Below are positions 7,447-56,640 of a stretch of 63,328 nucleotides of DNA, piece by piece. How positions within the stretch are numbered: the first letter of the stretch is position 1; each line of letters starts with the position of its first letter. The notes under the pieces are model-generated. The model made no database searches, had not been told where the DNA came from, and was given only the letters and a program-made list of their open reading frames with translations. Origin of the DNA: Pseudomonadota bacterium (GTDB lineage Bacteria; Pseudomonadota; Gammaproteobacteria; UBA9214); assembly GCA_039714155.1 (NCBI GenBank), contig JBDLJX010000003.1:1-63328 (forward strand), in the 5' to 3' direction. The translations under genes were made by a program, and so were the position numbers.

Positions 7447-8792
7447 TGCGTTCGCTGCACAGCCGACTGCTGCTGGCTGCATCCCTGGTTCTTGCCGGCT
7501 TCCTTGGTGCCACCGGCCTGGCGCTCGACAAGGCCTTTCGCGTCAGTGCCGAGGCCGCCATGCAGGACCGCCTGCAGTCTCATATCTACGCCCTGCTGGC
7601 CGCCGCGGATGAAGATGACAACGGCCGCATGACCCCGCCACAGGAGCTGCCGGAACCACGCTTCTCGAAACCGGATTCAGGTCTGTATGCGGTCATCACC
7701 AGCGGCAACGGTAAACCGCTGTGGCACTCCACCTCCCTGACCGGGCGCAACATCAACGTGACGGAACAACAAATGCCCGGCAAGCGCCACTTTAGCCGGC
7801 TAGCCCGCTCGGGCATGCAACTGTATGCCCTCGCGCTTGGCGTTGCCTGGGAAGACGATGCCGGCACGGAGGCGTTGTACACATTCACCGTGGCGGAAGA
7901 TACCACGGTGTTCCAGACGGAGATCGACAGTTTCCGTTCTACCTTGTGGCGCTGGCTCGGCGGCATGGCACTGGTGCTGCTGCTGGCGCAGGGTGTCATC
8001 CTGCGCTGGGGCCTGCGGCCACTGCGGACGGTTAGCAATGACCTGCAGCAGATCGAAAAAGGCCGCGCAGACCGTCTGGACGGACACTACCCCAGGGAAC
8101 TCACCGGCTTGACCTCCAGCCTGAATTCCCTGATCGAGCACAGCAAGGCGGTACAGATCCGTTACCGCAACAGCCTCGATGACCTCGCCCACAGCCTGAA
8201 AACACCACTGGCCATTTTGCAGTCCAGCCCCCCGGACAGCAGTCGCAACCCTGATACCAGCCACGCCCTGGTCAGGGAACAGGTGGAACGCATGGATGAA
8301 ATCATCAGCCATCAATTACAACGCGCCGCCGTCTCCGGCCGGACCACACTGGCCAAACCGGTATCGGTTGGCAAGGTCGTGGAGCGGCTGGTGCGCTCCC
8401 TCGACAAGGTGTACCGGGAAAAACAGCTGACGGTTAACCTGGAACTGGACCCGTCAGCCAGCTTCACAGGGGACGAGGCCGACCTGACGGAGGTCCTCGG
8501 CAACCTGCTGGAGAACGCCTACAAGTACTGCCACCGTGCGGTCCGGGTGTGCGTGCGGACGGGCCCACACACCGACGGTGTCGAGATCAGCATCGAAGAC
8601 GACGGCCCCGGCATTGCAGCAGATCAGGTCGACACCGTCCTGCAACGCGGCAAACGCATGGACGAGTCGATTCCCGGTCAGGGCCTCGGCCTGAGCATGG
8701 CCAGCGAAATTATTACCGTGTATGGCGGGCAACTGGCATTTGCTGTCAGCCCCCTGGGCGGCACCCTGCTGCGGGTCAGTTTCCGCGATTGA
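7446..8792 (+). CDS. phoQ: Sensor histidine kinase, PhoQ-like
   Basis: Two TM segments, HAMP, H-box DLAHSLKTPL, N-box GNLLENAYKY, G-boxes DDGPGI and GQGLGL. Confidence 0.85.
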   Translation: MRSLHSRLLLAASLVLAGFLGATGLALDKAFRVSAEAAMQDRLQSHIYALLAAADEDDNGRMTPPQELPEPRFSKPDSGLYAVITSGNGKPLWHSTSLTGRNINVTEQQMPGKRHFSRLARSGMQLYALALGVAWEDDAGTEALYTFTVAEDTTVFQTEIDSFRSTLWRWLGGMALVLLLAQGVILRWGLRPLRTVSNDLQQIEKGRADRLDGHYPRELTGLTSSLNSLIEHSKAVQIRYRNSLDDLAHSLKTPLAILQSSPPDSSRNPDTSHALVREQVERMDEIISHQLQRAAVSGRTTLAKPVSVGKVVERLVRSLDKVYREKQLTVNLELDPSASFTGDEADLTEVLGNLLENAYKYCHRAVRVCVRTGPHTDGVEISIEDDGPGIAADQVDTVLQRGKRMDESIPGQGLGLSMASEIITVYGGQLAFAVSPLGGTLLRVSFRD

Positions 8793-8828
8793 CCCGGTAG
8801 TCAGTTCTTCACAGGTCGGGTTAGCCAT

Positions 8829-8923
8829 GTGGGAGCGTCGTCGCCTACAGGGATGTAGGTGAGGGGCGTGAGCAGGACGCGGAAGCTTCCCCGGCGCGAA
8901 TCGCGGCGAGACGCCGCTCCCAC
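8829..8923. repeat. Composite family A REP pair with internal insert
   Basis: gtgggagcg...ccccggcgcga followed by tcgcggcgagacgccgctcccac; same layout, without the insert, at 44936-44983. Confidence 0.7.
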
Positions 8924-8957
8924 AGTAAGAATATTCTTTCAATAATGAGGGCAACCT

Positions 8958-9356
8958 TCACCGCATTGGTGACAGGCTGACGTTCACTGGTATCCGCTCA
9001 CCGGGGTCGTAAGACAACCGGGTGGTCTCCGTCTCACCGCCATAGCGATAGGTCACCCGGTAACCGCTAATGTGTTCGCGAGCGCGTTGTTCAGTGACGT
9101 TTCTGCAGCGGTGCTGTTGCTGCCACTGACGAACCTGATGCCGGATATCCTCACCGATGGTCGCCGCGATGTCGTTAAATTCCCGCGCCGTGGCATCCGG
9201 TTCAGTACATACCCGGCGTGTGATCGGCTCATAGCGTGTTTCCATGACAGGCTCTACGTTCAACACCGGCGCAAAGGCCTGGTATTCCACGGCGTGCGTG
9301 AAGCCGCTCATGAGCCAGACAAGCAACAGGACCTGTATCTTCATTCCGGTTCTCAT
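8958..9356 (-). CDS. Exported YcfJ-like protein lacking the glycine zipper
   Basis: Signal peptide; A.VLNVEPV.ET...C and GYRVTYRYGGE...DPGERIPV.V match the 5887 protein; zipper segment replaced. Confidence 0.75.
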   Translation of the reverse strand: MRTGMKIQVLLLVWLMSGFTHAVEYQAFAPVLNVEPVMETRYEPITRRVCTEPDATAREFNDIAATIGEDIRHQVRQWQQQHRCRNVTEQRAREHISGYRVTYRYGGETETTRLSYDPGERIPVNVSLSPMR

Positions 9357-9401
9357 TGGTCTGCTCCTGTTCAGTTTGCCGGATGCCTTGATGGTTTTGC
9401 A

Positions 9402-9471
9402 GTAGGAGCGACTTCAGTCGCGATGGGTTGTTAATAATTCAGCCAGTTATCGCGGCTGAAGCCGCTCCTAC
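9402..9471. repeat. REPIN-like inverted pair of family A REPs
   Basis: gtaggagcgacttcagtcgcga ... tcgcggctgaagccgctcctac. Confidence 0.85.
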
Positions 9472-9538
9472 GGTTGCTGTTTGTAATTATGTGAGACAGC
9501 AGTAACACTGCATACATAATCAGTTTCGTGTGCAACAT

Positions 9539-10333
9539 TTATCCAAACCCCATCTTGTCGAGCAACTGCTCTCCACTGCTGCGCTCGGCCTCGTCGGTAT
9601 ACTGCATCACTACATCAAAGCCACCTTCCGGTAGCCGAAACCAGTCCAGGCGCAAGTTACCAAACCCGGGCTGCAGCCGGTCAACAAAGGCGGCCGCACG
9701 GTAGGGACGGGAAAAATGGATGATGAACAGGCGATTCTGCCCCGCATAGCGTTGCCGTGCCGTGCCGCTGCGTGCCTTGCCGCTGCCGTTCAGGACATAC
9801 TCAAGATGCCGCAGGATATAGGCGCTGTACCAGACCGCACCGGCCGGCAAGCGCCCCCCGGACACAGGTATCCGTGAAGGTCCGTAATTATAGGCCGCCA
9901 GGGTGCGGTACCAGTTGCCATCATAGCGTTGCTGCAGTTCCTTCAGGTAGCGTGCACCGGCATCCACATTGGTACAGGGATCCAGCACCTCGGACAGGCG
10001 CTCCAGCCCCAGGTGTTTCGCCGTAGCGGGCCAGAGAATCTGCATCAGGCCGTAGGCATTGGCCTTCGAACGGGCCCGCGGTTTGAAATCACTCTCGCCC
10101 CTGGCAACGGCCAGTAACAGGGTTTCCGGCAGGTCATGGGCAGAGGCCGCGCGACTGAAGCAATGTGCATAGGGAAAGTCCAGTGCCGGCGAGGTTTGCA
10201 GGGCGTTCGTCGCATAGGTCTGCCAGCGCGCTTCCGTTGCCAGGCGATCGATCGAGGTATCCGTTTTCGCAGCTGCTGTGGTGGTCCACGACACACTTAT
10301 ACAAAGTATCAGTATCGATGGATGCCGCAGCAT
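9539..10333 (-). CDS. SLT-family lytic transglycosylase with C-terminal SPOR-like domain
   Basis: AVARGESDF (catalytic Glu), AYGLMQI, NVDAGARYL, LAAYNYG; signal peptide; short C-terminal alpha/beta domain. Confidence 0.9.
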   Translation of the reverse strand: MLRHPSILILCISVSWTTTAAAKTDTSIDRLATEARWQTYATNALQTSPALDFPYAHCFSRAASAHDLPETLLLAVARGESDFKPRARSKANAYGLMQILWPATAKHLGLERLSEVLDPCTNVDAGARYLKELQQRYDGNWYRTLAAYNYGPSRIPVSGGRLPAGAVWYSAYILRHLEYVLNGSGKARSGTARQRYAGQNRLFIIHFSRPYRAAAFVDRLQPGFGNLRLDWFRLPEGGFDVVMQYTDEAERSSGEQLLDKMGFG

Positions 10334-10335
10334 GG

Positions 10336-10875
10336 CTATTCCAGTTCGAGTCCGGTTATGGTCTGAATATGCTCGACCAGCACCTGCCGTTCCCCGTCAT
10401 CCCGGTAACTGAAAACCACCTGATAGTTTCCCGGGCTTTCATTCACCACTTCCATGGGCACATCAGTCGCCAGGGCCAGGCGTCGTGCAAAGCCGTTTGC
10501 CGCCCACTCGCTCCGGAAGGGACTCCAGACCCGATAGCGGGACCCCGCCATGTCGCCACTGCGATCATCGGTTTCCTGGGCAGCCACGGACTGATTCCAT
10601 GACTGCGGGTCCAGTGCCAGTTCGTTACCGGTAGCATCAGGCTTGCTCTCTTCAGCCGGGCTGGCAGTGTCTGTAACCGGAAGTACCGGGCTGTCGACAG
10701 CATTGTCGACCGGTACATCCTCTGCCGGTGCCGGTTCGGTAACCCTGCGGTCTGTATCCGCCTCACTGCTGACGACTTCCTTCACCAGCGTTGGCGAGTT
10801 GCCGGTACTCAGGGCCAGCAGGAATACCCCCGACATCAACAAGGCACCGACCAGAAATCCTATAGCCCGCGTCAT
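10336..10875 (-). CDS. Membrane-anchored protein with low-complexity linker and SPOR-like C-terminus
   Basis: ATGA overlap with the upstream stop; N-terminal TM; acidic Pro/Ala linker; RVWSPFRSEWAANGFARRL...YQVVF resembles the C-terminus of the neighbouring SLT. Confidence 0.7.
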   Translation of the reverse strand: MTRAIGFLVGALLMSGVFLLALSTGNSPTLVKEVVSSEADTDRRVTEPAPAEDVPVDNAVDSPVLPVTDTASPAEESKPDATGNELALDPQSWNQSVAAQETDDRSGDMAGSRYRVWSPFRSEWAANGFARRLALATDVPMEVVNESPGNYQVVFSYRDDGERQVLVEHIQTITGLELE

Positions 10876-40736: not shown

Positions 40737-42284
40737 ATGCGTATCGAATTTATCATTCCCGAAGATCTGGACTACGAAGACCTGCAGTCAACGCTTCGGA
40801 AAAACACCCGGATGCTCCCGGAACCGGTACGGACAATCTACAGGACGTACTACGACAGTTTTGACTGGCGCCTGTATCAGAACGATTCCCTGCTTGAAGA
40901 CACCCGTGACGGCAATGAACACACACTGGTGTGGCAGACCCTGAAGGGCGAATACCGCTGCCCCCGGTTAAAGCTGCATGCAGCACCCCGGTTTGCCAGA
41001 GACCTGCCACATGGACCGTTTCGCAACAGCCTGGAACCGGTGCTTGAAATGCGCGAACTCATCCCGAAAGTCAGGATCCGTTCCCGGATCAATAGCCTGC
41101 GCATCCTGAACAGGGACGAAAAAACCGTGGCCTGGCTGACAGTCGAGGAAAACACCCTGCTGCGGCAGAAAGGGACACGCTCCGGAAAACTTGATAAGCG
41201 GGCTGTAGTGATTCCGGTCAGGGGCTACCCGAAACCCGGCAAGGCGCTGGCAAGACGCCTTCAGGAGCAGGGTCTGACCCCCGCGCAGGATGACCTCATG
41301 CTGGCGGCCCTGTCCACTACCGGTGCAATACCGGCCAGCTATTCTTCCAAGCTGGACCTGAAGCTGGATCCCGCCATGCGTGCAGACAGGACAACCAAGG
41401 TCATCCTGCACCGGCTCCTCGATATCATGTTACAAAACGAGGCTGGCACCCGCACGGGTACGGATACCGAATTCCTGCATGATTTCCGTGTCGCAATCCG
41501 CCGCACCCGTTCGGCCCTCACCCAGATCAAGGCGGTATTTCCGAAACGCATCGTTGACCGTTATAAAACCGAATTTGCCTGGCTCGGCGGGGTAACCAGC
41601 CCCAGCCGTGACCTGGATGTGTATTTACTGAATTTTGATGAATACCGTGACAGCCTGTCAGCCGCCATGCAGGCCGATATCGAACCACTGCGTGATTTTC
41701 TCATCAGGCACCAGAAGACTGAACACAGGACCCTGGTCAAGGCACTGGATTCGGCGCGCTACCGCCGGCTGATCAGGAACTGGCGTCTGTTTCTGGACCA
41801 GCCGGTCAACGAACGCTCGACACTGAAAAATGCAGGCCGGCCCGTCATTGAGGTTGCCTGCGAACGGATCTGGCGTGTCTACCGGTGCGCCATCCGGGAG
41901 GGTAATGCGATCAATGCAGAGTCGCCCGCGGATGCCCTGCATGAACTGCGCAAGACCTGCAAGAAACTGCGATATCTCATGGAGTTCTTCCAGAGCCTGT
42001 ATACGACCGGTAATATCAAGGAGTTAATCCGGGTACTCAAGACACTGCAGGACAACCTGGGTAATTTTCAGGATTACGAGGTACAGGTCACCACATTGAA
42101 AAAATTCAGCCACCAGATGGTTGCCGAAGGTACAGTCCCTCCTGATACGCTGCTCGCCATGGGTATGCTTATCGACGGCCTGGAACGGCGCCAGCATCAG
42201 GCGCGGGAAGAATTTGCCGGCCGGTTCGCGAATTTCTACCTGCAGGAAAATCAGGACCGGTTCCGGAAACTGTTCGCATATTAA
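40737..42284 (+). CDS. CYTH-like + CHAD domain protein (polyphosphate-binding family)
   Basis: YYDSFDWRL; E.LHDFRVA.RR.RS; LHELRK.CKKLRY..E, LQD.LG..QD. Confidence 0.9.
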   Translation: MRIEFIIPEDLDYEDLQSTLRKNTRMLPEPVRTIYRTYYDSFDWRLYQNDSLLEDTRDGNEHTLVWQTLKGEYRCPRLKLHAAPRFARDLPHGPFRNSLEPVLEMRELIPKVRIRSRINSLRILNRDEKTVAWLTVEENTLLRQKGTRSGKLDKRAVVIPVRGYPKPGKALARRLQEQGLTPAQDDLMLAALSTTGAIPASYSSKLDLKLDPAMRADRTTKVILHRLLDIMLQNEAGTRTGTDTEFLHDFRVAIRRTRSALTQIKAVFPKRIVDRYKTEFAWLGGVTSPSRDLDVYLLNFDEYRDSLSAAMQADIEPLRDFLIRHQKTEHRTLVKALDSARYRRLIRNWRLFLDQPVNERSTLKNAGRPVIEVACERIWRVYRCAIREGNAINAESPADALHELRKTCKKLRYLMEFFQSLYTTGNIKELIRVLKTLQDNLGNFQDYEVQVTTLKKFSHQMVAEGTVPPDTLLAMGMLIDGLERRQHQAREEFAGRFANFYLQENQDRFRKLFAY

Positions 42285-42300
42285 CCAGGGAACCCCCAGT

Positions 42301-43053
42301 TTGAAAGTAATCGCCACATACAACATCAAGGGCGGTGTCGGCAAGACGGCAACCGCGGTTAACCTCGCCTGGCTGGCGGCCCGCGAAGGTGCGCCAACAC
42401 TGGTCTGGGACCTCGATCCCCAGGGCGCCGCAAGCTACTACTTCCGTATCAAACCCAGTATCAAGGGAGGCGGCAAACGCCTGGTTCAGGGCAAGCGGGA
42501 CCTGGATGATTTTATCCGCGGTACCGATTATGAACTGCTCGATCTGCTGCCAGCGGATTTTTCCTACCGGAATATGGATCTTTACCTGGAACAGGCGAAA
42601 AACCCGATACGCCAGCTGCGCAAACTGCTCAAACCCTTCAAGAGTGAATATTACTATGTTTTTCTTGACTGCCCGCCGAGCATTTCCCTGGTATCGGAAA
42701 ACATCTTCGAGGCGACCGACACGGTGCTGGTACCAACCATACCAACCACCCTGTCGTTGCGCACCTACAAGCAGATCCGGAAATTTTTCCGGCAGCACGC
42801 ACTTGACACAGTCAAGATCCTGCCGTTCTTCTCTATGGTCGACCGCCGCAAGCAAATGCACCGCACTATCGTTGACAACCCGCCCGGGTACGTGGAGAAC
42901 CTCCTGCAGAACCATATTCCCTACAACAGTATCGTTGAGCGTATGGGAGACTATCGTGCCCCGCTGGGCGAATTTGCACCCAACAGCCATGCCAGCCGCT
43001 GCTATGAGGCCCTGTGGGAAGATGTCAGACAGCAGTTATCCGGCCAGGAATAA
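42301..43053 (+). CDS. ParA/Soj family ATPase
   Basis: YNIKGGVGKT deviant Walker A, WDLDPQG, DCPPS; TTG start 42301. Confidence 0.9.
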   Translation: MKVIATYNIKGGVGKTATAVNLAWLAAREGAPTLVWDLDPQGAASYYFRIKPSIKGGGKRLVQGKRDLDDFIRGTDYELLDLLPADFSYRNMDLYLEQAKNPIRQLRKLLKPFKSEYYYVFLDCPPSISLVSENIFEATDTVLVPTIPTTLSLRTYKQIRKFFRQHALDTVKILPFFSMVDRRKQMHRTIVDNPPGYVENLLQNHIPYNSIVERMGDYRAPLGEFAPNSHASRCYEALWEDVRQQLSGQE

Positions 43054-43128
43054 GCCGCTTATTTCCAGGGAGTATCCCGGCAACAGCACACCCGCATCCT
43101 GCGGGTCTGAATCCTCACACCGTAATAA

Positions 43129-43142
43129 TTGATCCAGATCAA
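43129..43142. promoter_or_regulatory. FNR/Anr-type box
   Basis: TTGAT-ccag-ATCAA, perfect consensus; AATACT ~20 nt downstream. Confidence 0.7.
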
Positions 43143-43250
43143 AAAAACGCCATATATCAGGCAATACTGATTGCTCCTGACTCAGCCTGATGCCAGCATG
43201 TTTAGTTCACTAATCATGTCACCTTGAAAAAATTGAGGGGGTTAAGGAAC

Positions 43251-43601
43251 ATGAAACCAGCCATTATCGATATTCCCGGCATCGGGCCGGCAGCAGCAGA
43301 AACACTGGCCGAACATCGCATCAGGAGTCTTGCCGGCCTTGCCAGGGCATCTGTCGAGAAAATCACCGCCATTCCCGGTTTCAGTGAAGCACGCGCCACC
43401 CAGGTCATCGCAGCCGCCGCCGAGCTGCTTGCCGCATCAGGAACAACCCCGGCAGCCAAAGACGCAGGTGAGGAATCCGGGAAAAAGACCAAGTCTGGCG
43501 GCAAAGGCAAAAAAGACAAGAAGAAAAAAGACAAGGGAAAAGGCAAGAATAAGGGTAAAGGTAAGGGCAAGAACAAGGGAAAGAAGAAAGGCAAGAAATA
43601 G
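43251..43601 (+). CDS. Helix-hairpin-helix protein with Lys/Gly-rich tail
   Basis: IPGIGPAAA..L and IPGFSEARA HhH pair; tail KGKKDKKKKDKGKGKNKGKGKGKNKGKKKGKK. Confidence 0.85.
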   Translation: MKPAIIDIPGIGPAAAETLAEHRIRSLAGLARASVEKITAIPGFSEARATQVIAAAAELLAASGTTPAAKDAGEESGKKTKSGGKGKKDKKKKDKGKGKNKGKGKGKNKGKKKGKK

Positions 43602-43809: not shown

Positions 43810-43854
43810 TTATCATCACATGGTAATAAAACGGTAACATTCCGCTGTTATTGT
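43810..43854 (+). promoter_or_regulatory. Tandem Pho box upstream of pstS
   Basis: TTATCAT-caca-TGGTAAT-aaaa-CGGTAAC (11 bp period), 10 nt, TATTGT. Confidence 0.65.
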
Positions 43855-44021
43855 TAGCTAACCTTAAGCTAACGCAAATTTAATATCTCTCTAATACTGA
43901 CCTGACAACACGTCTCTTCAGCGACTGGAATAACCGTCTCCACAAGCTGGAAAGACTGTAAACGCCGGGAGAAAACCGGTGTTTATGTGTAATGCATACA
44001 TATTCAACTGGAGCTGAAATC

Positions 44022-44894
44022 ATGAAACTGAAACTCATTCTTTCCACAACGCTGCTGGTGTCCGCCCTGCTAACCACAATGGCCCCGCAGGCACGCACCC
44101 TGATCCAGAACAAGGGCTCGGATACACTGGTCAATGTCGCCCAGGCCTGGGCAGAAGCCTACCCGAAGGTTAACCCCGATGTCGCTGTTGCTGTCTCCGG
44201 CGGCGGCTCCGGCACGGGCATTGCGGCCATGATCAACGGCACGGTGGATATTGCCAACGCCAGCCGCAAGATGAAGGCCAAGGAGATGAAGCTGGCCAAG
44301 GAAAACGGCCAGTCACCGGTCGAGCATGTCGTCGGCTACGATGCGCTGGCGGTATTCATTCACAGGGACAACCCGGTCAAGTCCATGTCGCTGGCACAAT
44401 TAAAGGACATCTACGGCCGTGACCCCAAGGTCAAAAAGTGGTCGGACATGGGCATCACCGTTCCCGGCTGCAAGGACAAGATTGTGGTGGTGAGCCGGCA
44501 GAACAATTCCGGCACCTACGTCTATTTCAAGGAGACCGTGCTGGGCAAGAAAGGCAAGTATCGCCAGGGAACACTGGATATGCACGGCTCCAAGGATGTT
44601 GTTGACCTGGTCGAGAAGACACCCTGCGCCATCGGCTACAGTGGTCTGGCCTATGCCACGGACCACCTCAAGATGGTCTGCATAGCAAAAGACGGCGCGG
44701 ATGCCTGTGTAAACCCGAGTGTTGGAACAGCCAGCGACCGCAGTTATCCCATTGCCCGTCCGCTGTTCATGTACACCGACGGTGAGCCCAAGGGCGCGAT
44801 CAAGGCCTACATGGACTGGATTCAGAGCGATGCCGGTCAATGTATATTGAAGAAAAAAGGCTACGCCCCAATACGCGCCGTCAAGTGCGACTGA
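44022..44894 (+). CDS. pstS: Phosphate ABC transporter substrate-binding protein
   Basis: KGSDT, GGGSGTGI, DIANASR, SRQNNSGTY..F, YPIARPLFMY; ATG 44022 after GGAG. Confidence 0.93.
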   Translation: MKLKLILSTTLLVSALLTTMAPQARTLIQNKGSDTLVNVAQAWAEAYPKVNPDVAVAVSGGGSGTGIAAMINGTVDIANASRKMKAKEMKLAKENGQSPVEHVVGYDALAVFIHRDNPVKSMSLAQLKDIYGRDPKVKKWSDMGITVPGCKDKIVVVSRQNNSGTYVYFKETVLGKKGKYRQGTLDMHGSKDVVDLVEKTPCAIGYSGLAYATDHLKMVCIAKDGADACVNPSVGTASDRSYPIARPLFMYTDGEPKGAIKAYMDWIQSDAGQCILKKKGYAPIRAVKCD

Positions 44895-45052: not shown

Positions 45053-46138
45053 ATGAGTCACTACGAAGAACGTCTGGAAAGAGACCTGGCCGCCATCCGC
45101 GTACAGGTGGCAGACATGGCCGCCCTGGTGGAAACAGGGGTCAAGAATGCCATGCACGCACTGCAAACCGGCAATAGCAAGCTCGCATCCGCCACCGTAC
45201 TTGCAGACCACCCGATCAACCGCTCCATGCGGTGGATCGACCAGTTATGTCATAAATTCATTGCCCTGCACCTGCCGAGCGCGGGTCATCTGCGGTTGCT
45301 GTCCTCCGTGATCCGGGCAAACATCGAACTGGAACGGATCGGAGATTACGCCGTCACCATCGCCCGCGAGGCATTACAACTGTCGGCACCTCCGTCAGGA
45401 CCAATGTCCCGTGAACTGGAACGTGTCGGCAGCGAGACGCAACTCATGCTGGGCCAGTCCATCAAGGCCTTTAACGAGCTCAATCCTGAAATGGCAAAAG
45501 GCACCATGATCATGGAAGAGCAGATGGAGAATGACCTGGACATCATCTATTCCGAGTTGATGGCCAATGACGACCGGGATGCGGTCAAGAACCTGCTGGC
45601 GATGTTCGCCGTTTTCACCCAGCTGAAACGGATCGCAGACCAGGCCAAGAACCTCTGCGAGGAAACGGTTTTCGCCGCTACCGGTGACACCAAGGCACCC
45701 AAGGTCTACAACATCCTGTTCATTGACGAGGACAACAGTTGTCAAAGCCAGATCGCCGAGGCCATTGCCCGCAAGAACTTTCCCGAAAGCGGCAACTACA
45801 CCAGCGCCGGGCGGCAACCTGCCGCCGGGCTGAATCCTGCCATGGTGGAATTTCTTGACAGCCATGGCGTAAGCCTTGCTGACACCGCCAAACCCAGACC
45901 CCTTGACATGACCCCGCTGGAACTGACCACACAGCATTTCATCGTCAGCCTGCAGGGCACGGTCAACTCCTACTTCGACCTGATCCCCTTCCACACCACC
46001 CCTCTGGAGTGGGACGTCGGTCCCGCCCCGGAGAGTAGTGATGAAGCCGGCATCAAGCGAATGGAAGAACTCTACCGTGACACGGCCGTCCAGGTTCGTG
46101 ACCTGATGGAAGCCCTGCGCGGTAAGGAAGCGCCTTGA
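45053..46138 (+). CDS. phoU: PhoU fused to a degenerate LMW-PTP/ArsC-like domain
   Basis: ELERIGDYA and LKRIADQAKNLCE PhoU repeats; ILFIDEDNSCQSQIAEA...SAG in place of C(X)5R. Confidence 0.85.
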   Translation: MSHYEERLERDLAAIRVQVADMAALVETGVKNAMHALQTGNSKLASATVLADHPINRSMRWIDQLCHKFIALHLPSAGHLRLLSSVIRANIELERIGDYAVTIAREALQLSAPPSGPMSRELERVGSETQLMLGQSIKAFNELNPEMAKGTMIMEEQMENDLDIIYSELMANDDRDAVKNLLAMFAVFTQLKRIADQAKNLCEETVFAATGDTKAPKVYNILFIDEDNSCQSQIAEAIARKNFPESGNYTSAGRQPAAGLNPAMVEFLDSHGVSLADTAKPRPLDMTPLELTTQHFIVSLQGTVNSYFDLIPFHTTPLEWDVGPAPESSDEAGIKRMEELYRDTAVQVRDLMEALRGKEAP

Positions 46139-46139
46139 T

Positions 46140-47072
46140 ATGCCCGACCAGCAGCTGACAGAGAGAGCCAGCATGACGGCATTCGATCGTCGCAACGCCG
46201 ACTGGTATATCGACAAGCTGGTCCAGGTGCTGGTCTTCATCGGCGGCATCTCGGCCATCATCTTTGTCGTCGGTATCTTTGCCTTCGTCACCAAGGAAGG
46301 CTTCGGTTTCATTCTCGACCGCTTCGATTTCCAGGAATTCTTCACCTCCCCCTACTGGTACCCCGCCGAAGAGGAGGATCCTGAATATGGTATCCTGGCG
46401 CTGATCGCGGGCACGGCCAGTGTCACCGGACTGGCCATGCTGGTGGCCATCCCGTTTTCACTGGGCGCGGCGATCTATGTCGCCGAATTTGCCAGCGGCA
46501 AGACCCGGGAGACCCTCAAGGTACTGGTGGAACTGCTGGCCGCCATCCCCTCGGTGGTATGGGGCTTCATCGGTCTCAGCATCATGAACCCGCTGATCAT
46601 ACAAGTCTTTGACGTCCCGGTGGGACTGAATGTACTGAACGCCGGCATTATCCTCGGACTGATGGCCGCACCCATCATGACATCCATCGCCGAGGATGCT
46701 CTCAAGGCGGTGCCCGACCGTTACCGGGAAGCCGCTGAAGCCATGGGCGCCACCCGCTGGCAGGTCATCTACAAGACTGTGTTACCGGCCGCCAAGAATG
46801 GCCTGCTGGGTGCTGTCCTGCTGGGTGTCGGCCGGGGTTTCGGCGAAACCATGGCCGTGCTGATGGCCACCGGTCACTCGATCAACATCCCGCACAGCAT
46901 CTTCGACTCGGTGCGCGCCCTGACGGCCACCATTGCCGCGGAACTGGGTGAAACCGCCGTCGGTTCCGATCACTACCAGGTACTGTTCACCATCGGCATC
47001 TTCCTGTTCCTGATCACTTTCGTTATTAACCTCACCGCCGATCTGATCGTGCGTGGCGTACGCAAGGGGTAG
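46140..47072 (+). CDS. pstC: Phosphate ABC permease PstC
   Basis: ELLAAIPSVVWG, P.RYREAA.AMGATRW, GRGFGETMAV.M. Confidence 0.93.
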   Translation: MPDQQLTERASMTAFDRRNADWYIDKLVQVLVFIGGISAIIFVVGIFAFVTKEGFGFILDRFDFQEFFTSPYWYPAEEEDPEYGILALIAGTASVTGLAMLVAIPFSLGAAIYVAEFASGKTRETLKVLVELLAAIPSVVWGFIGLSIMNPLIIQVFDVPVGLNVLNAGIILGLMAAPIMTSIAEDALKAVPDRYREAAEAMGATRWQVIYKTVLPAAKNGLLGAVLLGVGRGFGETMAVLMATGHSINIPHSIFDSVRALTATIAAELGETAVGSDHYQVLFTIGIFLFLITFVINLTADLIVRGVRKG

Positions 47073-47081
47073 GTACTAATC

Positions 47082-47951
47082 ATGTTCGAGACATCCGCAC
47101 TCAATATCAAAAACCAGCGGGTCCAGCGACTGTTTAATATCCTGTTCCTGCTGATGACCATGTTGCTGATTTTGCCGGTGCTGCTGATACTCGGGACCCT
47201 GGTTGCAAAAGGCGGCTCGGTCATCTCGATCGATTTCCTGTTCACCGCCCCGACCGACGGCATGACCGCAGGCGGCCTGTTCCCTGCCCTGCTGGGCACC
47301 GTCTGGCTGGTGGCGGTGGCGCTGCTGATCTCCGTGCCGCTGGGAATCGCAGCCGCCATCTATCTCAGCGAGTACGCAGGCAACAACTGGTTCACCCGCA
47401 TCATCAACCTGGCCATTATCAACCTGGCCGGCGTACCGTCGATCGTGCACGCCCTGTTCGGTGTCGGCGCCTTCGTGCTATTTTTCGGCTTTGGCACCAG
47501 CATCCTCGCGGCCAGCCTGACGCTGGCCATCATGACCCTGCCGGTGGTGATTGTGGCGACCCGCGAATCCCTGCAGGCGGTCCCGCATGCGTTTCGCGAG
47601 GCCTGCTGGAACATGGGCGCCACCCGCTGGCAGACCATTCGCCGCGTGGTGCTGCCCAATGCCGTCTCCGGCATCCTGACCGGTGTCATTCTCGAGGTAT
47701 CGCGCACCTCCGGTGAGACCGCGCCCATCATGTTCACCGGCGCCGTATTCTTCACGCCGTTCCTGCCACAGGGGATCTTTGACCAGACCATGGCCATGTC
47801 CCTGCACCTGTTCGTGGTATCGACGCAGGTCCCCGGCGTCCCCGAAGACCTGCCTTACGGTGTGGCCCTGGTGCTCATCGCCATGGTACTGCTGATGAAC
47901 AGCATCTCCATCGCCTTCCGTACCTGGTTGCGGGGTAAAAAGAAATGGTAG
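47082..47951 (+). CDS. pstA: Phosphate ABC permease PstA
   Basis: NLAGVPSIV..LFG, REA....GATRWQTI, R..GETAPI. Confidence 0.93.
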   Translation: MFETSALNIKNQRVQRLFNILFLLMTMLLILPVLLILGTLVAKGGSVISIDFLFTAPTDGMTAGGLFPALLGTVWLVAVALLISVPLGIAAAIYLSEYAGNNWFTRIINLAIINLAGVPSIVHALFGVGAFVLFFGFGTSILAASLTLAIMTLPVVIVATRESLQAVPHAFREACWNMGATRWQTIRRVVLPNAVSGILTGVILEVSRTSGETAPIMFTGAVFFTPFLPQGIFDQTMAMSLHLFVVSTQVPGVPEDLPYGVALVLIAMVLLMNSISIAFRTWLRGKKKW

Positions 47952-48748
47952 CCGGTATGCAGACAGCCGCACCTGCACCGGTAGCGGAACAAGTACCCAT
48001 CAAACTGGAAGTGCGCAACCTGTCCATTCGCTATGGCGATACAGCCGCACTCAGTGACGTCAGCCTGGACATCCGTGAACACGAAATCTTCGGCATCATC
48101 GGTCCGGCCAATGCCGGCAAGACCTCGTTCCTGAAAACGCTGAACCGCATGGACACGTTCAACTCCAGTATGCATGTCGGCGGTGAAATCCTGTTCAACG
48201 GTCTTGATATCCACCGCCTGAAAAATGTCTATGCATTGCGTTCCCGTATCGGTGTGGTATTCCCCCTGCCGGTCGGTCTGCCAATGACGATTTATGACAA
48301 CGTGGCCCTCGCCCCGCGCCTGTCAGGTATGAAAAAAAAGACCGACCTCGACATCATCGTCGAGCGCTGCCTGACCCGCGCCGCACTCTGGGATGAGGTC
48401 AAGGACCGGCTGACTTCCCTCGGCAGTCTGCTCTCCGGTGGCCAGCAGCAGCGCCTGACGATCGCCCGCGCGCTGTCCCAGGAACCGGAAGTGCTGATGC
48501 TCGACGAGTTCTCCATCGCCGTCGACCCGGTGACGACCATGCGCATCGAGGATGTCCTCAAGGAACTGAAACAGGAAATGACCATCATCCTGGTCACCAA
48601 CCTGGTACAGCAGGCGCGGCGTCTTGCCAGCCGAACCGCATTTTTCCTCAATGGCGAGTGCGTGGAAATCGGCGCGACCGAGGACCTGTTTACCGGCGAG
48701 GTCAAGGACCAGCGCACCCGGGATTACGTCGAGGGACGGTTTGGATAA
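47945..48748 (+). CDS. pstB: PstB-like ATPase 1 (intact signature, H-loop His replaced by Asn)
   Basis: GPANAGKT, LSGGQQQR, LDEF, LVTN, T..YVEGRFG. Confidence 0.88.
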   Translation: MVAGMQTAAPAPVAEQVPIKLEVRNLSIRYGDTAALSDVSLDIREHEIFGIIGPANAGKTSFLKTLNRMDTFNSSMHVGGEILFNGLDIHRLKNVYALRSRIGVVFPLPVGLPMTIYDNVALAPRLSGMKKKTDLDIIVERCLTRAALWDEVKDRLTSLGSLLSGGQQQRLTIARALSQEPEVLMLDEFSIAVDPVTTMRIEDVLKELKQEMTIILVTNLVQQARRLASRTAFFLNGECVEIGATEDLFTGEVKDQRTRDYVEGRFG

Positions 48749-49552
48749 ATGATGAATACAAGCAGCCAGGCAGTCATTGATAATCCGGTGGAATATGCCA
48801 TCCAGACAGAGCGATTGAATCTCTGGTATGGCACGTTTCAGGCGCTGTTCGATATCGATCTCGACATCAAGCAAGGCATCATCACTTCCCTCATCGGACC
48901 TTCCGGGTGCGGCAAATCAACCTTCCTGCGCAGTGTCAACCGCATTAATGAACGGCTCGGTTATGTGCGCATCGAGGGTTCGATCAATGTCTTCGACCAC
49001 AACATCTATGACCCGGCTGTCGAACTTGTACAGGTGCGCAAACAGATCGGCATGGTCTTCCAGCGACCAAACCCGCTACCGATTTCCATCCGCGACAACG
49101 TGCTGTTCGGCTACAACCTGCATTCGGAAGGCAAACGTGCCTCGCGCAGTGAACAGGATGATATCGCCGAGGACGCCCTTCGCCAGGTACTGTTATGGGA
49201 CAAGGTCAAGGACCGGCTGGACAGCAAGGGCACCGAACTCTCGCTGGAGGAACAGCAGAAACTCTGTATCGCCCGCCTGCTGCCCGTCAAGCCCGGCTTG
49301 CTGCTGATGGATGAACCCTGCTCCGCGCTCGACCCCAAGGGCACCGAGGCCGTGGAAGAGCTGATATGGGAACTGCGCGGCAAGTACACCATCCTCATCG
49401 TGACCCACAACATGGCCCAGGCGCGTCGCGCCAGCGAAGAATGCATCTTTATGCTGATGGGCAAGGTGGTGGAACACACGGCCACCGAAGACATGTTTGT
49501 CACACCCCGGAAACAGGAAACGGCGGACTACATCGAAGGCCGTTACGGCTAG
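48749..49552 (+). CDS. pstB: PstB-like ATPase 2 (degenerate signature, intact Walker A/B and H-loop)
   Basis: GPSGCGKS, MVFQRPNP, LSLEEQQKL, MDEPCSALDP, IVTHN, YIEGRYG. Confidence 0.9.
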   Translation: MMNTSSQAVIDNPVEYAIQTERLNLWYGTFQALFDIDLDIKQGIITSLIGPSGCGKSTFLRSVNRINERLGYVRIEGSINVFDHNIYDPAVELVQVRKQIGMVFQRPNPLPISIRDNVLFGYNLHSEGKRASRSEQDDIAEDALRQVLLWDKVKDRLDSKGTELSLEEQQKLCIARLLPVKPGLLLMDEPCSALDPKGTEAVEELIWELRGKYTILIVTHNMAQARRASEECIFMLMGKVVEHTATEDMFVTPRKQETADYIEGRYG

Positions 49553-49685
49553 CCCGCACAGATTGCCTGGCCCGGATGGAGTGTAACGGAATCCGGGAAA
49601 CTTGTTCCAAATAAGGCCCCGGATTCCGGCCCCTGGCTTACACCCCTCTTTGATTTGCTGACCACCTGCCATATCCTTGCATACC

Positions 49686-50372
49686 ATGTCCTGCATCCTG
49701 GTTGTCGATGATGATCCCGCCATCCGCGAAATGGTCGGCATGGCACTGGCCCGCGAAAGATACGAAGTCCTTGAAGCCGGGAGCGCGCTGGAAGCACGTC
49801 AGATAATCACTTCCCGAAAGCCTGACCTGATACTTCTCGACTGGATGCTGCCTGGACAATCGGGATTCGAATTCGCCCGTACATTGCAGAGGGATTCCGT
49901 TCACAAGCAGATTCCCGTCATCATGTTAACGGCGCGGGACCAGGAAGAAGACAAGGTGGCCGCACTGGAGGCCGGCGCGGATGATTATGTAGCCAAACCT
50001 TTCTCGGTCTCCGAACTGCTGGCACGCATCAAGGCCGTGCTGCGCCGCACCACCCGGGATACCGACGGGGAAATCCTGGCAAGCGATACGCTGCGCCTGG
50101 ACCCGGCAAGTCACCGGGTCAGCATCAATGACACCCCGCTGGAACTGACGCCCATGGAGTTTCAGTTACTGCTGTTCTTCATGACACACCCGGAGCGGGT
50201 TTACAGCCGTCAGCAATTGATCGACCGGGTCTGGGGAACCAGTGTCTATGTAGAGGAACGCACCGTCGATGTTCACATTCGCCGCTTGCGCAAGACCCTG
50301 GAGCCGTCAGGACACGACCGGCTGGTGCAAACGGTTCGTGGTAGCGGCTACCGCTTCTCCACACACGATTGA
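49686..50372 (+). CDS. phoB: Phosphate regulon response regulator PhoB
   Basis: [57 protein letters not shown]. Confidence 0.92.
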
Positions 50373-51685
50373 GCACGGAATCTCTCCATTCCATGCCCAG
50401 CCACTGGCGAGAAGAACTCCGGCTGTTCCTCGGGGTAGTGCTCATAGCAGGCCTGGCGGGTACGCTAACGGGACAACTGCTGCCGTGCCTGTTGCTCGGC
50501 CTGCTGGTTTATCTCGGCTGGCATCTGTATCAACTGGCCCGTCTGCCGCACTTGCTCGACCAGGACGGGCAGGACGGTCCGCGGCCCAATGGCCTGTGGA
50601 AAGGCATCGTCCGGGAGGTCCGGGACCTGCAAGCCAGCAACCGCACCCGCAGACGCGATCTCTCATATCAGCTTGACCGTTTTCAGGACACGGTCAACAC
50701 ATTGCCCGATGCCGTGGTCATTCTGGGCCCGTCGGGCGGAATCGACTGGTCCAACCCCGCCGCCGGGAATCTGCTGGGTATCATGTGGCCGGGTTCACAG
50801 GGCCGGTTATTGACTGCTCTCGCACCGGACCCGGTACTCGGAGAATATCTGGCAAGCGGTGATTTTGCCATGCCGCTGGTCATTACCTCACCGGCAAACC
50901 GGGCAAAGATCCTGTCAGTTTTTATCGCCCCGCTAAAACATGAAGCCAACCGGCTAATGGTCGTGGCGCGAGACATAACCCGCCAGTATTACCTCGATGC
51001 AGCACGGCGTGATTTTGTGGCCAATGTGTCGCATGAACTGCGCACCCCCCTGACCGTAATATCCGGACTTGCTGAACAGCTGAACATGGATGAGCCTGAT
51101 CCGGCCATACTGCACCGGTCAACCGGGCTGATACTTCAACAGGCAAGACGCATGAGTGAACTGGTATCCGACCTGCTGACATTGTCACAGCTGGAAATGC
51201 AGCAGGAATCTGCACCTGAGGAGCACGTCCCGGTAGCGAAACTCCTCACGACCATCATCGAGGAAGCACGTACCCTGAGTGGTGCGGCGCAGCATGTACT
51301 GCAACTGGATATCCGTTCGCCAAACGGATTGCGCGGCAACGCAAAGGAACTCCGTACCGCCTTTTCAAACCTGGTTAGCAATGCAATCAGACATACCCCG
51401 AGCCAGGCGGAAGTCAGGGTCCGGTGGCAGGTGGATCATGCGGGCGCTCATCTCAGTGTCATTGATACCGGGGAAGGCATTGCCGCCCGCCACATCCCCC
51501 GCCTGACCGAACGACTGTATCGTGTCGATGCCAGCCATTCACGGGATACCGGGGGCACGGGCCTCGGACTGGCCATTGTCAAACACGTACTCGAGCACCA
51601 CGAGGCAGAACTGGAAATTATCAGCACGGTGGGAGGCGGCAGCACCTTTACCTGCCACTTCCCGTCCGCAAGAGTGATCTCATGA
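50369..51685 (+). CDS. phoR: Phosphate regulon sensor kinase PhoR
   Basis: PAS-like region, [46 protein letters not shown]. Confidence 0.92.
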
Positions 51686-51716: not shown

Positions 51717-52127
51717 TCAGATGGTTTCCGGCAGTTTCTTCAGTACCTGCTTTAATCCGCCATTACTGACCAGTTTGAGGGCTTGCTGCAGCGACACCCA
51801 TTCACGCTTCCGGTCGGATTCTTCCCATACCTTGTAGATCCTGGTGACCCGCATCGGATAGACCTTGACGGTACAGGTCATGCCCCACTTCCTGTGCCGG
51901 TAGATACCCAGTGGCTTGCCGTGTACCCCGCCCTTCACACCGGCCTCTTCCAGCGCCTCCTTGGCAGCCGAGTTGCGCGCGCTGAGGTCGGACTCGATGA
52001 TGCCCTTGGGAATAATCCAGCGACGTTCCTTACGTGAGGTAATCAGGAGAATTTCAAGATTTCCCTTGCGCACCCGGTAGGGGATGACCCCGGACTGTCG
52101 GCAAAAGTAATCGGTCTTTACGGCCAT
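51717..52127 (-). CDS. NUDIX hydrolase, DIPP/Nudt3-like
   Basis: QSGVIPYR...EILLITSR...WIIPKG...AAKEALEEAGV. Confidence 0.88.
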   Translation of the reverse strand: MAVKTDYFCRQSGVIPYRVRKGNLEILLITSRKERRWIIPKGIIESDLSARNSAAKEALEEAGVKGGVHGKPLGIYRHRKWGMTCTVKVYPMRVTRIYKVWEESDRKREWVSLQQALKLVSNGGLKQVLKKLPETI

Positions 52128-54643: not shown

Positions 54644-55909
54644 TTATGTAAACATGCCCTTCAGGGTAAAGAAGAAGAGTGCTGCCAGCGCGGCGCCAAC
54701 CGGCAATGTCACAACCCAGGAGACCACGATACTGCCGATCACACGCAGATCGATTGCCCCGACACCACGCGCCAGACCAACCCCAATCACGGCGCCCACG
54801 GCAATATGCGTGGTGGAGACCGGCAAACCGGTACGTGACGCCAGCACGACGGTTGCCGCTGCCGCCAGCGTCGCACAATAGCCGCGGCTCGGTGTAAGCT
54901 GGGTAATGCCGCTGCCGATAGTCTTCATCACCCGGTAACCCATTGTTGCCAGACCGACAACGATACCGGTCCCGCCAAGCACCAGTATCCACAAGGGCAA
55001 GGCCGCCTTTTGACCAACTTCTCCGCCGGATTGCACAATACTGATGACGGCGGCAAGGGGCGCTATGCCGTTGGCGACATCGTTCGATCCATGTGCGAAG
55101 GCCATGGCACAGGCCGTGAATATCATCATGGGGGTGAAAACCTTTTCCACGCTGGCAAAGTGAAAGTCACGATCAGCACCCGGGTCGATCTCAATCCGTT
55201 TAATCAGGAACCAGCCAATGCCGGCCAGGGTCATGCCGAAAATCACTGCCACCACGAAACTCATACCTGCAGACAGTTCGAGGTTCAGGTGCTTCAGACC
55301 CTTGAACATGGTCACGAGGGAGATAATAAAACCGACCAGAAAGATGTAGCCTGGCCCCCAGCGTTTTGCGCTCTGGAAGGGATTATCCGTATTCAGGATC
55401 AGTCGACGGATACTCATCATCAGCAGGAAGGCGAGGGTTCCTCCCAGTAGCGGTGACACCACCCAGCTGGCCGCAATCTGGGAAACCTTGCCCCACTCCA
55501 CTGCATCGACCCCGATTCCCACCATTGCGAAGCCGATTACGGCACCGACGATGGAGTGCGTCGTCGAGACCGGCCAGCCCTTGGATGAGGCCATCATTAA
55601 CCAGACCGCTGCCGCCAACAGGGCGGCAAGCATCCCGAAGACCAGGATCTCCGGATTATTGACGATTGACGAGGGGTCAATAATGCCTTTGCGGATCGTC
55701 CTGGTCACATTGCCGCCAGCAATAAAGGCACCGGCAAATTCGAAGATAGCGGCAATGATGATGGCCTGTTTGACCGTAATGGCGCCCGAGCCCACGGACG
55801 TCCCCATGGCATTGGCCACATCATTGGCGCCTATACCCCAGGTCATATACAGCCCGAAGACAACGGCCATGGCCATAAAGATGAAACCGTATGTCGCGAT
55901 TATTTCCAT
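54644..55909 (-). CDS. pit: Inorganic phosphate transporter (PiT family)
   Basis: GANDVANAMGT and HGSNDVANG signatures, PVSTTH twice. Confidence 0.95.
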   Translation of the reverse strand: MEIIATYGFIFMAMAVVFGLYMTWGIGANDVANAMGTSVGSGAITVKQAIIIAAIFEFAGAFIAGGNVTRTIRKGIIDPSSIVNNPEILVFGMLAALLAAAVWLMMASSKGWPVSTTHSIVGAVIGFAMVGIGVDAVEWGKVSQIAASWVVSPLLGGTLAFLLMMSIRRLILNTDNPFQSAKRWGPGYIFLVGFIISLVTMFKGLKHLNLELSAGMSFVVAVIFGMTLAGIGWFLIKRIEIDPGADRDFHFASVEKVFTPMMIFTACAMAFAHGSNDVANGIAPLAAVISIVQSGGEVGQKAALPLWILVLGGTGIVVGLATMGYRVMKTIGSGITQLTPSRGYCATLAAAATVVLASRTGLPVSTTHIAVGAVIGVGLARGVGAIDLRVIGSIVVSWVVTLPVGAALAALFFFTLKGMFT

Positions 55910-55959: not shown

Positions 55960-56640
55960 TCATCTGGCGATCAGCAGACGCAGCCGGTCGCCAACCTTCT
56001 CGGCATAATCGGCCAGGTCCCCGACCCACTCGATCAGCTGGTACCACATCATTACGGAGACCGGCTTGATCTCGTCTTCATGGTCAAACAGGTGACGAGC
56101 CAGTTCAATACCGAGTTCATCCGTGTCATCTTCAATCAGATTCAGCTGCTCGACCATTTCCTCGACCCGGCTCGCCTCGCGCCCGCGAAAGCCCATGGCC
56201 AGCAGTTCGTCCAGTTCCTCGATGATTTTTGCCGACTGTTCGCAGGCATCAATACTGCGACGGGCAAGCGCCAGCATCGGCTCCTGCATGAAATCCGGTA
56301 TTTCCATGCGGCGTTCGACCAGCATCCCGGCAATATCCTGGGCCGTATCGGCGATTGAATCCTGCATTTGCAGAACTTCCAGCAGGTCACGCCGATCCAC
56401 CGGCATAAACAGGCTTCTTGGCAAGGCGCCACGCAAGTCATTCTTGATTCTGTCGGCCTCGGCTTCCCGCTCGAAGATCTTGTTTTTGGTGGCTACCACG
56501 CCCTCCTGGTCACCGGCAGCCAGGGCTTCAAACAAGGGTGGAATCTCACGGGCGCACTCAAGCACGATACGCATATGGCCCTGCATGGCCTTAAAGGGTG
56601 ACTTGCCAAACAGGTTTGCGAATGGATTGGTGGTTGACAT
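55960..56640 (-). CDS. DUF47/TIGR00153 PhoU-like Pit regulator
   Basis: FGKSPF..MQ.H, E.EAD.IK...R..LP..LF.P..R.DLL, DLAD.AE.VG. Confidence 0.9.
   Translation of the reverse strand: MSTTNPFANLFGKSPFKAMQGHMRIVLECAREIPPLFEALAAGDQEGVVATKNKIFEREAEADRIKNDLRGALPRSLFMPVDRRDLLEVLQMQDSIADTAQDIAGMLVERRMEIPDFMQEPMLALARRSIDACEQSAKIIEELDELLAMGFRGREASRVEEMVEQLNLIEDDTDELGIELARHLFDHEDEIKPVSVMMWYQLIEWVGDLADYAEKVGDRLRLLIAR

Follow-up and report, generated by a model that had tools for sequence, protein, structure and literature searches.

Gene content and order of the locus

The window, by which we mean the whole stretch of 63,328 nt analysed here, carries a pst operon whose phoU gene encodes an additional C-terminal domain. 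Its genes lie in the order CHAD, ParA-like ATPase, HhH, pstS, phoU*, pstC, pstA, pstB1, pstB2, phoB, phoR, where phoU* denotes the phoU-dArsC fusion gene. The features on which the analysis draws are as follows.

43822–43850, plus strand: Pho-box-like element of three 11-bp-phased units (GGTAAT, GGTAAC, GCTGTT), about 175–200 nt upstream of the likely pstS start
43992–44894, plus strand: pstS, periplasmic phosphate-binding protein (TIGR02136, 241.7 bits, above cut-off; PBP_like_2, E 1e-44)
45053–46138, plus strand: phoU-dArsC fusion gene (phoU*), 361 aa (profile matches, structure model, Foldseek)
45071–45688, plus strand: PhoU domain, aa 7–212 (TIGR02135, 138 bits; Foldseek 4q25, TM 0.94)
45713–46135, plus strand: dead ArsC/LMW-PTP-fold domain, aa 221–361 (Pfam LMWPc, 28.3 bits; 3t38, E 7e-7; Foldseek 1lk0/1jf8, TM 0.85; dN/dS 0.14–0.25)
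45725–45748, plus strand: remnant of the CX5R(S) loop, D225-E-D-N-S-C-Q231-S232 (alignments to ArsC; family counts)
46140–47072, plus strand: pstC (BPD_transp_1)
47082–47951, plus strand: pstA (BPD_transp_1)
47945–48748, plus strand: pstB1, degenerate ATPase subunit (TIGR00972, 285 bits, below the cut-off of 343)
48749–49552, plus strand: pstB2, catalytically competent by its motifs, with LSLEE (TIGR00972, 318 bits, below the cut-off of 343)
49677–50372, plus strand: phoB, response regulator (Response_reg and Trans_reg_C)
50369–51685, plus strand: phoR, sensor kinase (canonical PhoR N-terminal domain, HisKA, HATPase_c)

Comparison with relatives places the real pstS start probably at the ATG at 44022 (MKLKL...). 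The first-pass annotation had noted that phoU sits between pstS and pstC rather than after pstB, and the ORF coordinates and profile matches bear this out. The start of pstC lies one base past the phoU* stop, and genes further downstream abut or overlap. This arrangement suggests that phoU* and pstC are translationally coupled, and the close spacing together with the abutting genes fits production of the fused protein alongside the transporter. We also considered a terminator or attenuator between pstS and phoU*, and dropped it: the interval has no terminator-like site on the plus strand, and its fold z-score is only -1.96.

A PhoU domain joined to an ArsC-like fold

The ORF at 45053–46138 on the plus strand encodes 361 aa, comprising PhoU (aa 7–212) and a domain of the ArsC/LMW-PTP fold (aa 221–361), hereafter the C-domain. 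Pfam recognises two PhoU repeats (PF01895, E 8e-22), and the NCBIfam model TIGR02135 (phoU_full) scores 138 bits over aa 7–212, above its curated equivalog cut-off of 130. The E/DxxxD-type acidic motifs of PhoU helices 3 and 6 (E94..D98; R193..N200) are both present, and E94, R95, D98, R193, and N200 are invariant in 77 sequences of the family. The C-domain matches Pfam LMWPc (PF01451) at aa 221–280 with 28.3 bits (cut-off 23.2), and reaches only 32 bits with the model for pI258-type ArsC (TIGR02691), far short of the equivalog cut-off of 174.3.

An AlphaFold2 model of the fusion, built with 77 family members as input, has a pLDDT of 95.4 and a pTM of 0.86 and places helices across residues 3–210. 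Foldseek matched aa 1–212 to the PhoU structure 4q25 (TM 0.94 of target, rmsd 1.3), so that the six-helix bundle fold is present. For the C-domain, the predicted model and the Pfam match agree on the four-stranded Rossmann-like LMW-PTP fold; the Foldseek matches are to pI258 ArsC (1lk0/1jf8; TM 0.85–0.86, probability 1.00), with thioredoxin-type arsenate reductases ranking ahead of true tyrosine phosphatases. A search of the ESM Atlas returned "ArsC/LMWPc-like" only, with scores below 0.9.

Full-text literature searches found no published description of a PhoU-ArsC/LMWPc fusion. The architecture is present in databases, in precomputed Pfam annotations, and has apparently gone unstudied.

Loss of the ArsC active site

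In HMMER searches against the PDB, the fusion loop ILFIDEDNSCQSQ aligns with the CxxNxCRS segment of two arsenate reductases, 1jl3 from B. subtilis and 3t38 from C. glutamicum (E 7e-7), which places Asp225 at the position of the nucleophilic cysteine and Gln231 at that of the loop arginine. The genome supplies its own control: contig C5 codes for a canonical ArsC whose loop reads ILFLCTGNSCRSQ and whose relay cysteines are both present, and another contig (C62) for an ordinary, intact LMW-PTP. Relative to its own-genome ArsC, the fusion has exchanged Cys for Asp, Gly for Asp, and Arg for Gln in the loop, and has lost both cysteines of the redox relay (TVCG to SLQG, DSCP to NSYF); the Cys82/Cys89 disulfide relay positions of ArsC correspond to Q301 and F308. 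The DP general-acid position of PTPs shows no conservation across the C-domain family, and the C-X5-R-(S/T) phosphate-binding loop of LMW-PTP and ArsC is absent from the fusion C-domain.

The first-pass annotation had read this region as a catalytically dead LMW-PTP/ArsC domain attached to PhoU, with Cys replaced by Asp and Arg by Gln. Pfam, HMMER, Foldseek, and the alignment to the genome's own ArsC confirm the domain, and both substitutions, now numbered Asp225 and Gln231, are correct at 45053–46138, because the alignments to ArsC structures and to the own-genome ArsC agree.

A separate domain family maintained by selection

When the C-domain alone was searched against 1.84 billion representative proteins, it gave 327 matches at E ≤ 1e-3, and the best 150 of these were nearly all proteins of ~360 aa with the domain at ~213–360, or fragments of such proteins. 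By these matches, the C-domain is a separate family, found nearly only behind PhoU. Close relatives (73–91% identity) are plentiful in metagenomes, where they are labelled simply PhoU. Scores were bimodal in two whole-genome samples, with frames of ~360–450 aa at 87–240 bits and ordinary ArsC at ≤ 50 bits; the fused form occurred in about 28 of 400 sampled genomes of the source phylum and in 15 of 81 sampled from the phylum of the Caldithrix genome. A few database representatives, among them P0239, P0212, and P0181, carry the dead ArsC-like domain behind unrelated N-termini (Ni_insertion, as Ni_insertion+PhoU; TrmE_N; a solute-binding (SBP) fragment). These odd architectures are singletons, and we take them to be chimeric or mis-called genes, not alternative fusions.

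Among 75 diverse full-length proteins of the family, 67 have Asp and 6 have Glu at position 225, and none has Cys there. In place of the loop arginine, 39 have Leu and 13 have Ala, while Arg itself is kept by only 2. Of the two relay positions, the first holds Cys in a single member and the second in none. Retention of CxxxxxR by orthologues, which would have spoken against a dead domain, is thus not what the family displays. The eight-residue loop occurs as 73 different strings in 75 sequences: only the first Asp is conserved, the other seven positions are nearly free to vary, and bulky or charged residues stand in for the loop Gly. The DEDNSCQS string that the first-pass annotation had singled out is accordingly shared within the source clade and by some distant members, and family-wide only its first Asp is kept.

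The strongly conserved positions of the C-domain are mostly core residues (F223, A235, A252, P312, F313, W320, L351), joined by Asp225, Lys214 in the linker, and Gly357 near the C-terminus. Because the most conserved positions lie in the core, no conserved partner-binding surface was recognised among the 75 members. In comparisons with close relatives, dN/dS was 0.14–0.25 for the C-domain and 0.10–0.20 for the PhoU domain, calculated by ungapped comparison of gap-free pairs only, with pairs carrying C-domain indels (L017–L023) left out. The C-domain values indicate that the domain is maintained by selection.

Linkage to an asymmetric pair of ATPase subunits

We compared 47 loci, 27 recovered through peptide patterns (from uncultured Gammaproteobacteria, Sedimenticola, Chromatiales, Candidatus Thiodiazotropha, Arenicellales, and one Caldithrix) and 20 more distant ones (33–47% identity) from a phylum-wide genome sample. 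The order pstS-phoU*-pstC-pstA-pstB1-pstB2 is kept in 45 of them, down to 30% identity and in two phyla, and the fusion gene is among the features that define this distinct six-gene variant of Pst. The two exceptions are the Caldithrix locus, with phoU* before pstS, and L076, an atypical second copy.

At L076 (G042:C75:60000-79900, ~8073–10697), the genes next to phoU* encode a permease that has diverged from PstC (33%) and just one ATPase, which is PstB2-like (49%), and this copy is without pstS, pstA, and pstB1. The gene content suggests that a fused PhoU may have been recruited there to a different ABC system.

The two PstB subunits have lost different motifs. PstB1 keeps Walker A, Walker B, and LSGGQ (the last in 42/42 loci), but Pro takes the place of the Q-loop Gln in 41/42 loci (as VVFPLP in 40, and in this genome), and Asn that of the H-loop His in all 42 (LVTNLV in this genome). 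PstB2 has LSLEE or LSLEA in place of LSGGQ in 41/43 loci, with its other motifs canonical. The substitutions are thus nearly invariant over loci of two phyla. Each ATP site of an ABC dimer combines the Walker and catalytic motifs of one subunit with the signature of its partner. The catalytic loss in PstB1 and the signature loss in PstB2 therefore leave one degenerate and one consensus ATP site, the complementary loss across two nucleotide-binding domains that marks ABC pairs with a single degenerate site. In the heterodimer that PstB1 and PstB2 would form, the dead site pairs the catalytic side of PstB1 with the signature of PstB2, and the other site is live. In the literature searched, we found no report of an asymmetric Pst importer ATPase.

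Phosphate genes and regulation in the source genome

The only full-length PhoU proteins of the genome are the window copy and a collinear second operon copy on contig C141; its other PF01895 matches are long proteins with open frames of 600–664 aa. No PstB match reaches the TIGR00972 cut-off, and the phoU* operon type is therefore the genome's only Pst type. Judged by gene content, the ordinary work of PhoU must fall to the fused protein, because the genome has nothing else that could do it. Its regulatory context is that of a sole PhoU type with canonical phoB and phoR directly downstream.

The 4.9-kb contig C141 (L098:1-4940) carries pstS(3' end)-phoU*-pstC-pstA-pstB1-pstB2 at 85% nucleotide identity and nothing else. 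It may be a genuine paralogue of the operon, or it may come from a related organism whose DNA was binned with the MAG, for which the contamination estimate is 3.5%. Two copies likewise occur in the sampled genomes G042, G086, G110, and G146.

When the sequences upstream of pstS are aligned for nine orthologous loci, strong conservation is confined to the block GTAACAAAACGGTAACAT, and the more distant Thiodiazotropha loci have a near-consensus CTGTCAT-N4-CTGTAAC at the same place. The element at 43822–43850 looks like a variant Pho box with a half-site unlike the E. coli CTGTCAT. Given this conserved phased block and the Pho boxes of distant relatives, we infer PhoB binding here, and the operon is probably PhoB-controlled.

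Several other genes of the neighbourhood relate to phosphate. Directly upstream of pstS (40737–43601) lie three genes, which encode a CHAD-domain protein (E 1e-60), an ATPase of the ParA type, and a small HhH protein whose tail is rich in Lys and Gly. This trio, or at minimum CHAD and ParA, also adjoins the operon in L032 and in the majority of close relatives. By analogy with CHAD as a polyphosphate binder (PMC6537752) and with AlgP, a histone-H1-like protein that spaces granules (PMC9239181), the trio could be a module for polyphosphate-granule binding and positioning. About 3 kb downstream of phoR, the minus strand encodes a Pit/PHO4-family phosphate carrier (54644–55909, E 1e-120), with a 226-aa ORF next to it (55960–56640, minus strand); a Nudix-like ORF at 51717–52127 (minus strand) was named by eye from its sequence. 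By their annotations, pst, phoBR, CHAD, Pit, and the neighbouring genes make up a phosphate-handling island.

Comparison with known systems

The fusion resembles canonical PhoU (E. coli/Salmonella; TIGR02135; 4q25 from P. aeruginosa, 1t72 from A. aeolicus) in fold, profile score, acidic motifs, and location in a pst operon next to phoBR. It differs in three respects: canonical PhoU is without the extra 150-aa C-terminal domain, its gene follows pstB instead of lying between pstS and pstC, and it works with a PstB homodimer, whereas the fusion is always paired with the asymmetric PstB1/PstB2.

For aa 221–361, the best sequence and fold matches are thioredoxin-coupled arsenate reductases (S. aureus pI258 1jf8/1lk0, B. 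subtilis 1jl3, C. glutamicum ArsC1' 3t38), which have the strand-loop-helix start, the SAG and W motifs, and the topology in common with the C-domain. The C-domain departs from them by Cys to Asp, by Arg to Gln (Leu in most of the family), by loss of the relay cysteines, and by a general-acid Asp that is unconserved. STYX-type pseudophosphatases are dead PTP domains that serve as binding modules, keep the phosphate-binding Arg, and bind phospho-ligands. They offer a parallel for a phosphatase fold that has lost its catalytic Cys, yet stays under selection and is reused without catalysis, but they belong to a different branch of the PTP superfamily and retain the Arg that the fusion C-domain has lost.

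As for the ATPase pair, heterodimeric ABC proteins such as TAP1/2, CFTR, and TM287/288 combine one consensus with one non-hydrolytic site through complementary substitutions. PstB1/PstB2 are alike in having one degenerate site, yet those proteins are exporters, whereas Pst is an importer. Tandem pstB1/pstB2 genes in Firmicutes likewise place two adjacent pstB in one operon with non-equivalent roles (E. faecalis, PMC12096839). In the E. faecalis pair, all motifs are present in both copies and phoU is unfused (PMC12096839); it is therefore not the same thing as the phoU* system, in which complementary motif loss leaves exactly one composite ATP site dead.

Possible roles of the C-domain

The reading we prefer, tentatively and with slightly less than even confidence, is that the C-domain is a non-catalytic docking or allosteric module that acts with the asymmetric PstB1/PstB2 dimer. 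PhoU* would be a working negative regulator that couples the Pst importer to PhoR/PhoB. Its C-domain would descend from a thioredoxin-type arsenate reductase whose chemistry is gone, and would serve as a protein-protein module providing a second, fixed contact between PhoU and the PstB1/PstB2 dimer. One PhoU* per transporter, as a stoichiometric subunit in a putative 1:1 ratio, could then sense or impose the conformational state of the nucleotide-binding domains and relay it to PhoR. The strict linkage to an asymmetric ATPase and the coupled gene arrangement are what suggest a fixed transporter subunit. Most likely, Asp225 would plug the former oxyanion hole and stabilise loop and helix as the thiolate did.

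Rates of evolution lend this docking reading weak support. In partial Mantel tests on pairwise distances from 38 operons, with PstC, PstA, and the PhoU domain controlled, dArsC distances covary with those of PstB1 (r 0.35) and PstB2 (r 0.33; 1 of 1000 permutations each), in a test that over-calls and treats related genomes as independent, on dArsC distances near saturation (mean 1.05), and with the PstB1 and PstB2 signals not separated from each other. With dArsC controlled in turn, the covariation of the PhoU domain with PstB vanishes (r 0.04 and 0.10). Between dArsC and PstS there is none (r 0.07). Contacts of the C-domain could alternatively be with PhoR, the membrane, or another PhoU*.

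The simplest competing view, which we consider unlikely, is that the C-domain has no specific partner and is an appendage of PhoU for folding, solubility, or oligomerisation. It would account for the concentration of conserved positions in the hydrophobic core and for the confident packing of the two domains in the model (pTM 0.86), and PhoU proteins are described as oligomerising (PMC11705898). It sits poorly with the strict coupling to one transporter type over two phyla, with a C-domain dN/dS near that of the PhoU domain, and with an evolutionary rate that covaries with PstB and not with PstS. A decaying arsenate reductase remnant on its way to being lost seems hardly credible: every catalytic residue is gone and the evolution of the domain outpaces that of PstCAB (mean distance 1.05 versus about 0.28), but the reading is already contradicted by an open frame of constant length in hundreds of clusters, dN/dS well below 1, the confident model, and retention across two phyla.

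Two further readings would leave the old active site a function. The first-pass annotation had proposed a sensor of oxyanions or phosphoproteins, perhaps discriminating arsenate, and a dead loop that still binds phosphate, arsenate, or a phosphoprotein would make the domain an intracellular ligand sensor feeding PhoU. Arsenate enters cells through Pst, the model predicts that the fold persists together with the loop-helix geometry whose backbone amides bind anions, and Ser232 and Asn228 of the old loop are still present in this protein. The idea is nevertheless improbable and disfavoured, because the anion-clamping Arg is gone (Leu, Ala, or Gln in nearly all members), the loop Gly is replaced, a carboxylate occupies the nucleophile site, with two more acidic loop residues in the source clade, and seven of the eight loop positions are unconserved, where a shared ligand pocket would be expected to be more constrained. 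Because an acidic residue is kept exactly at the old nucleophile site, it could instead have a chemical role, as a ligand for Mg or Mn, or as a phospho-acceptor or Asp nucleophile like those of receiver domains and HAD phosphatases. Asp or Glu occupies position 225 in 73/75 members, where strand 1 of a Rossmann-like sheet reaches its C-terminal end, a location like that of the HAD nucleophile; the D-x-D-x-S of the source clade resembles HAD motif I; and metal binding there would extend a known property of PhoU, that of E. coli being described as binding Mn and Mg (Gardner et al. 2014, cited in PMC12096839). We regard this as quite improbable, since the second Asp occurs in only 24/75 members, the loop contains Arg or Lys in many members, no further HAD or receiver motifs are conserved in the 75, and Foldseek matched the C-domain to ArsC/LMW-PTP folds only. 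The HAD and receiver signature of DxDx(T/V) or an acidic pocket with further motifs is absent from the C-domain. A HAD-like and an EF-hand-like reading of D-E-D-N-S...E were both dropped, as only the first Asp is conserved and, for the EF-hand, the helix starts too early. Ligand binding is probably not the role of Asp225.

Implications for Pho signalling

How PhoU couples Pst to PhoR is a long-standing open question, and we know of no structure of a PhoU-Pst-PhoR signalling complex. The PstB homodimer of E. coli presents two equivalent faces. A natural variant with built-in asymmetry, one dead and one live ATP site, provides a handle on how PhoU communicates with the pump, and it comes with a PhoU that carries an extra rigid domain and is apparently co-produced with the transporter. 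Such a defined 1:1 complex would lend itself to cryo-EM and to genetic work. The C-domain itself is a clean bacterial case of an enzyme fold reused after complete loss of its chemistry, and its hosts include environmentally important sulfur-oxidising Gammaproteobacteria (Thiodiazotropha symbionts, Sedimenticola) as well as a second phylum.

It is conceivable, though we think it rather doubtful, that PhoU*-PstS-C-A-B1-B2 is a distinct and widespread class of importer/sensor, in which the pseudo-ArsC domain would lock one PhoU on the asymmetric ATPase, read or set its non-hydrolytic site, and signal to PhoR. If true, this class would represent a Pho signalling architecture absent from the E. coli model.
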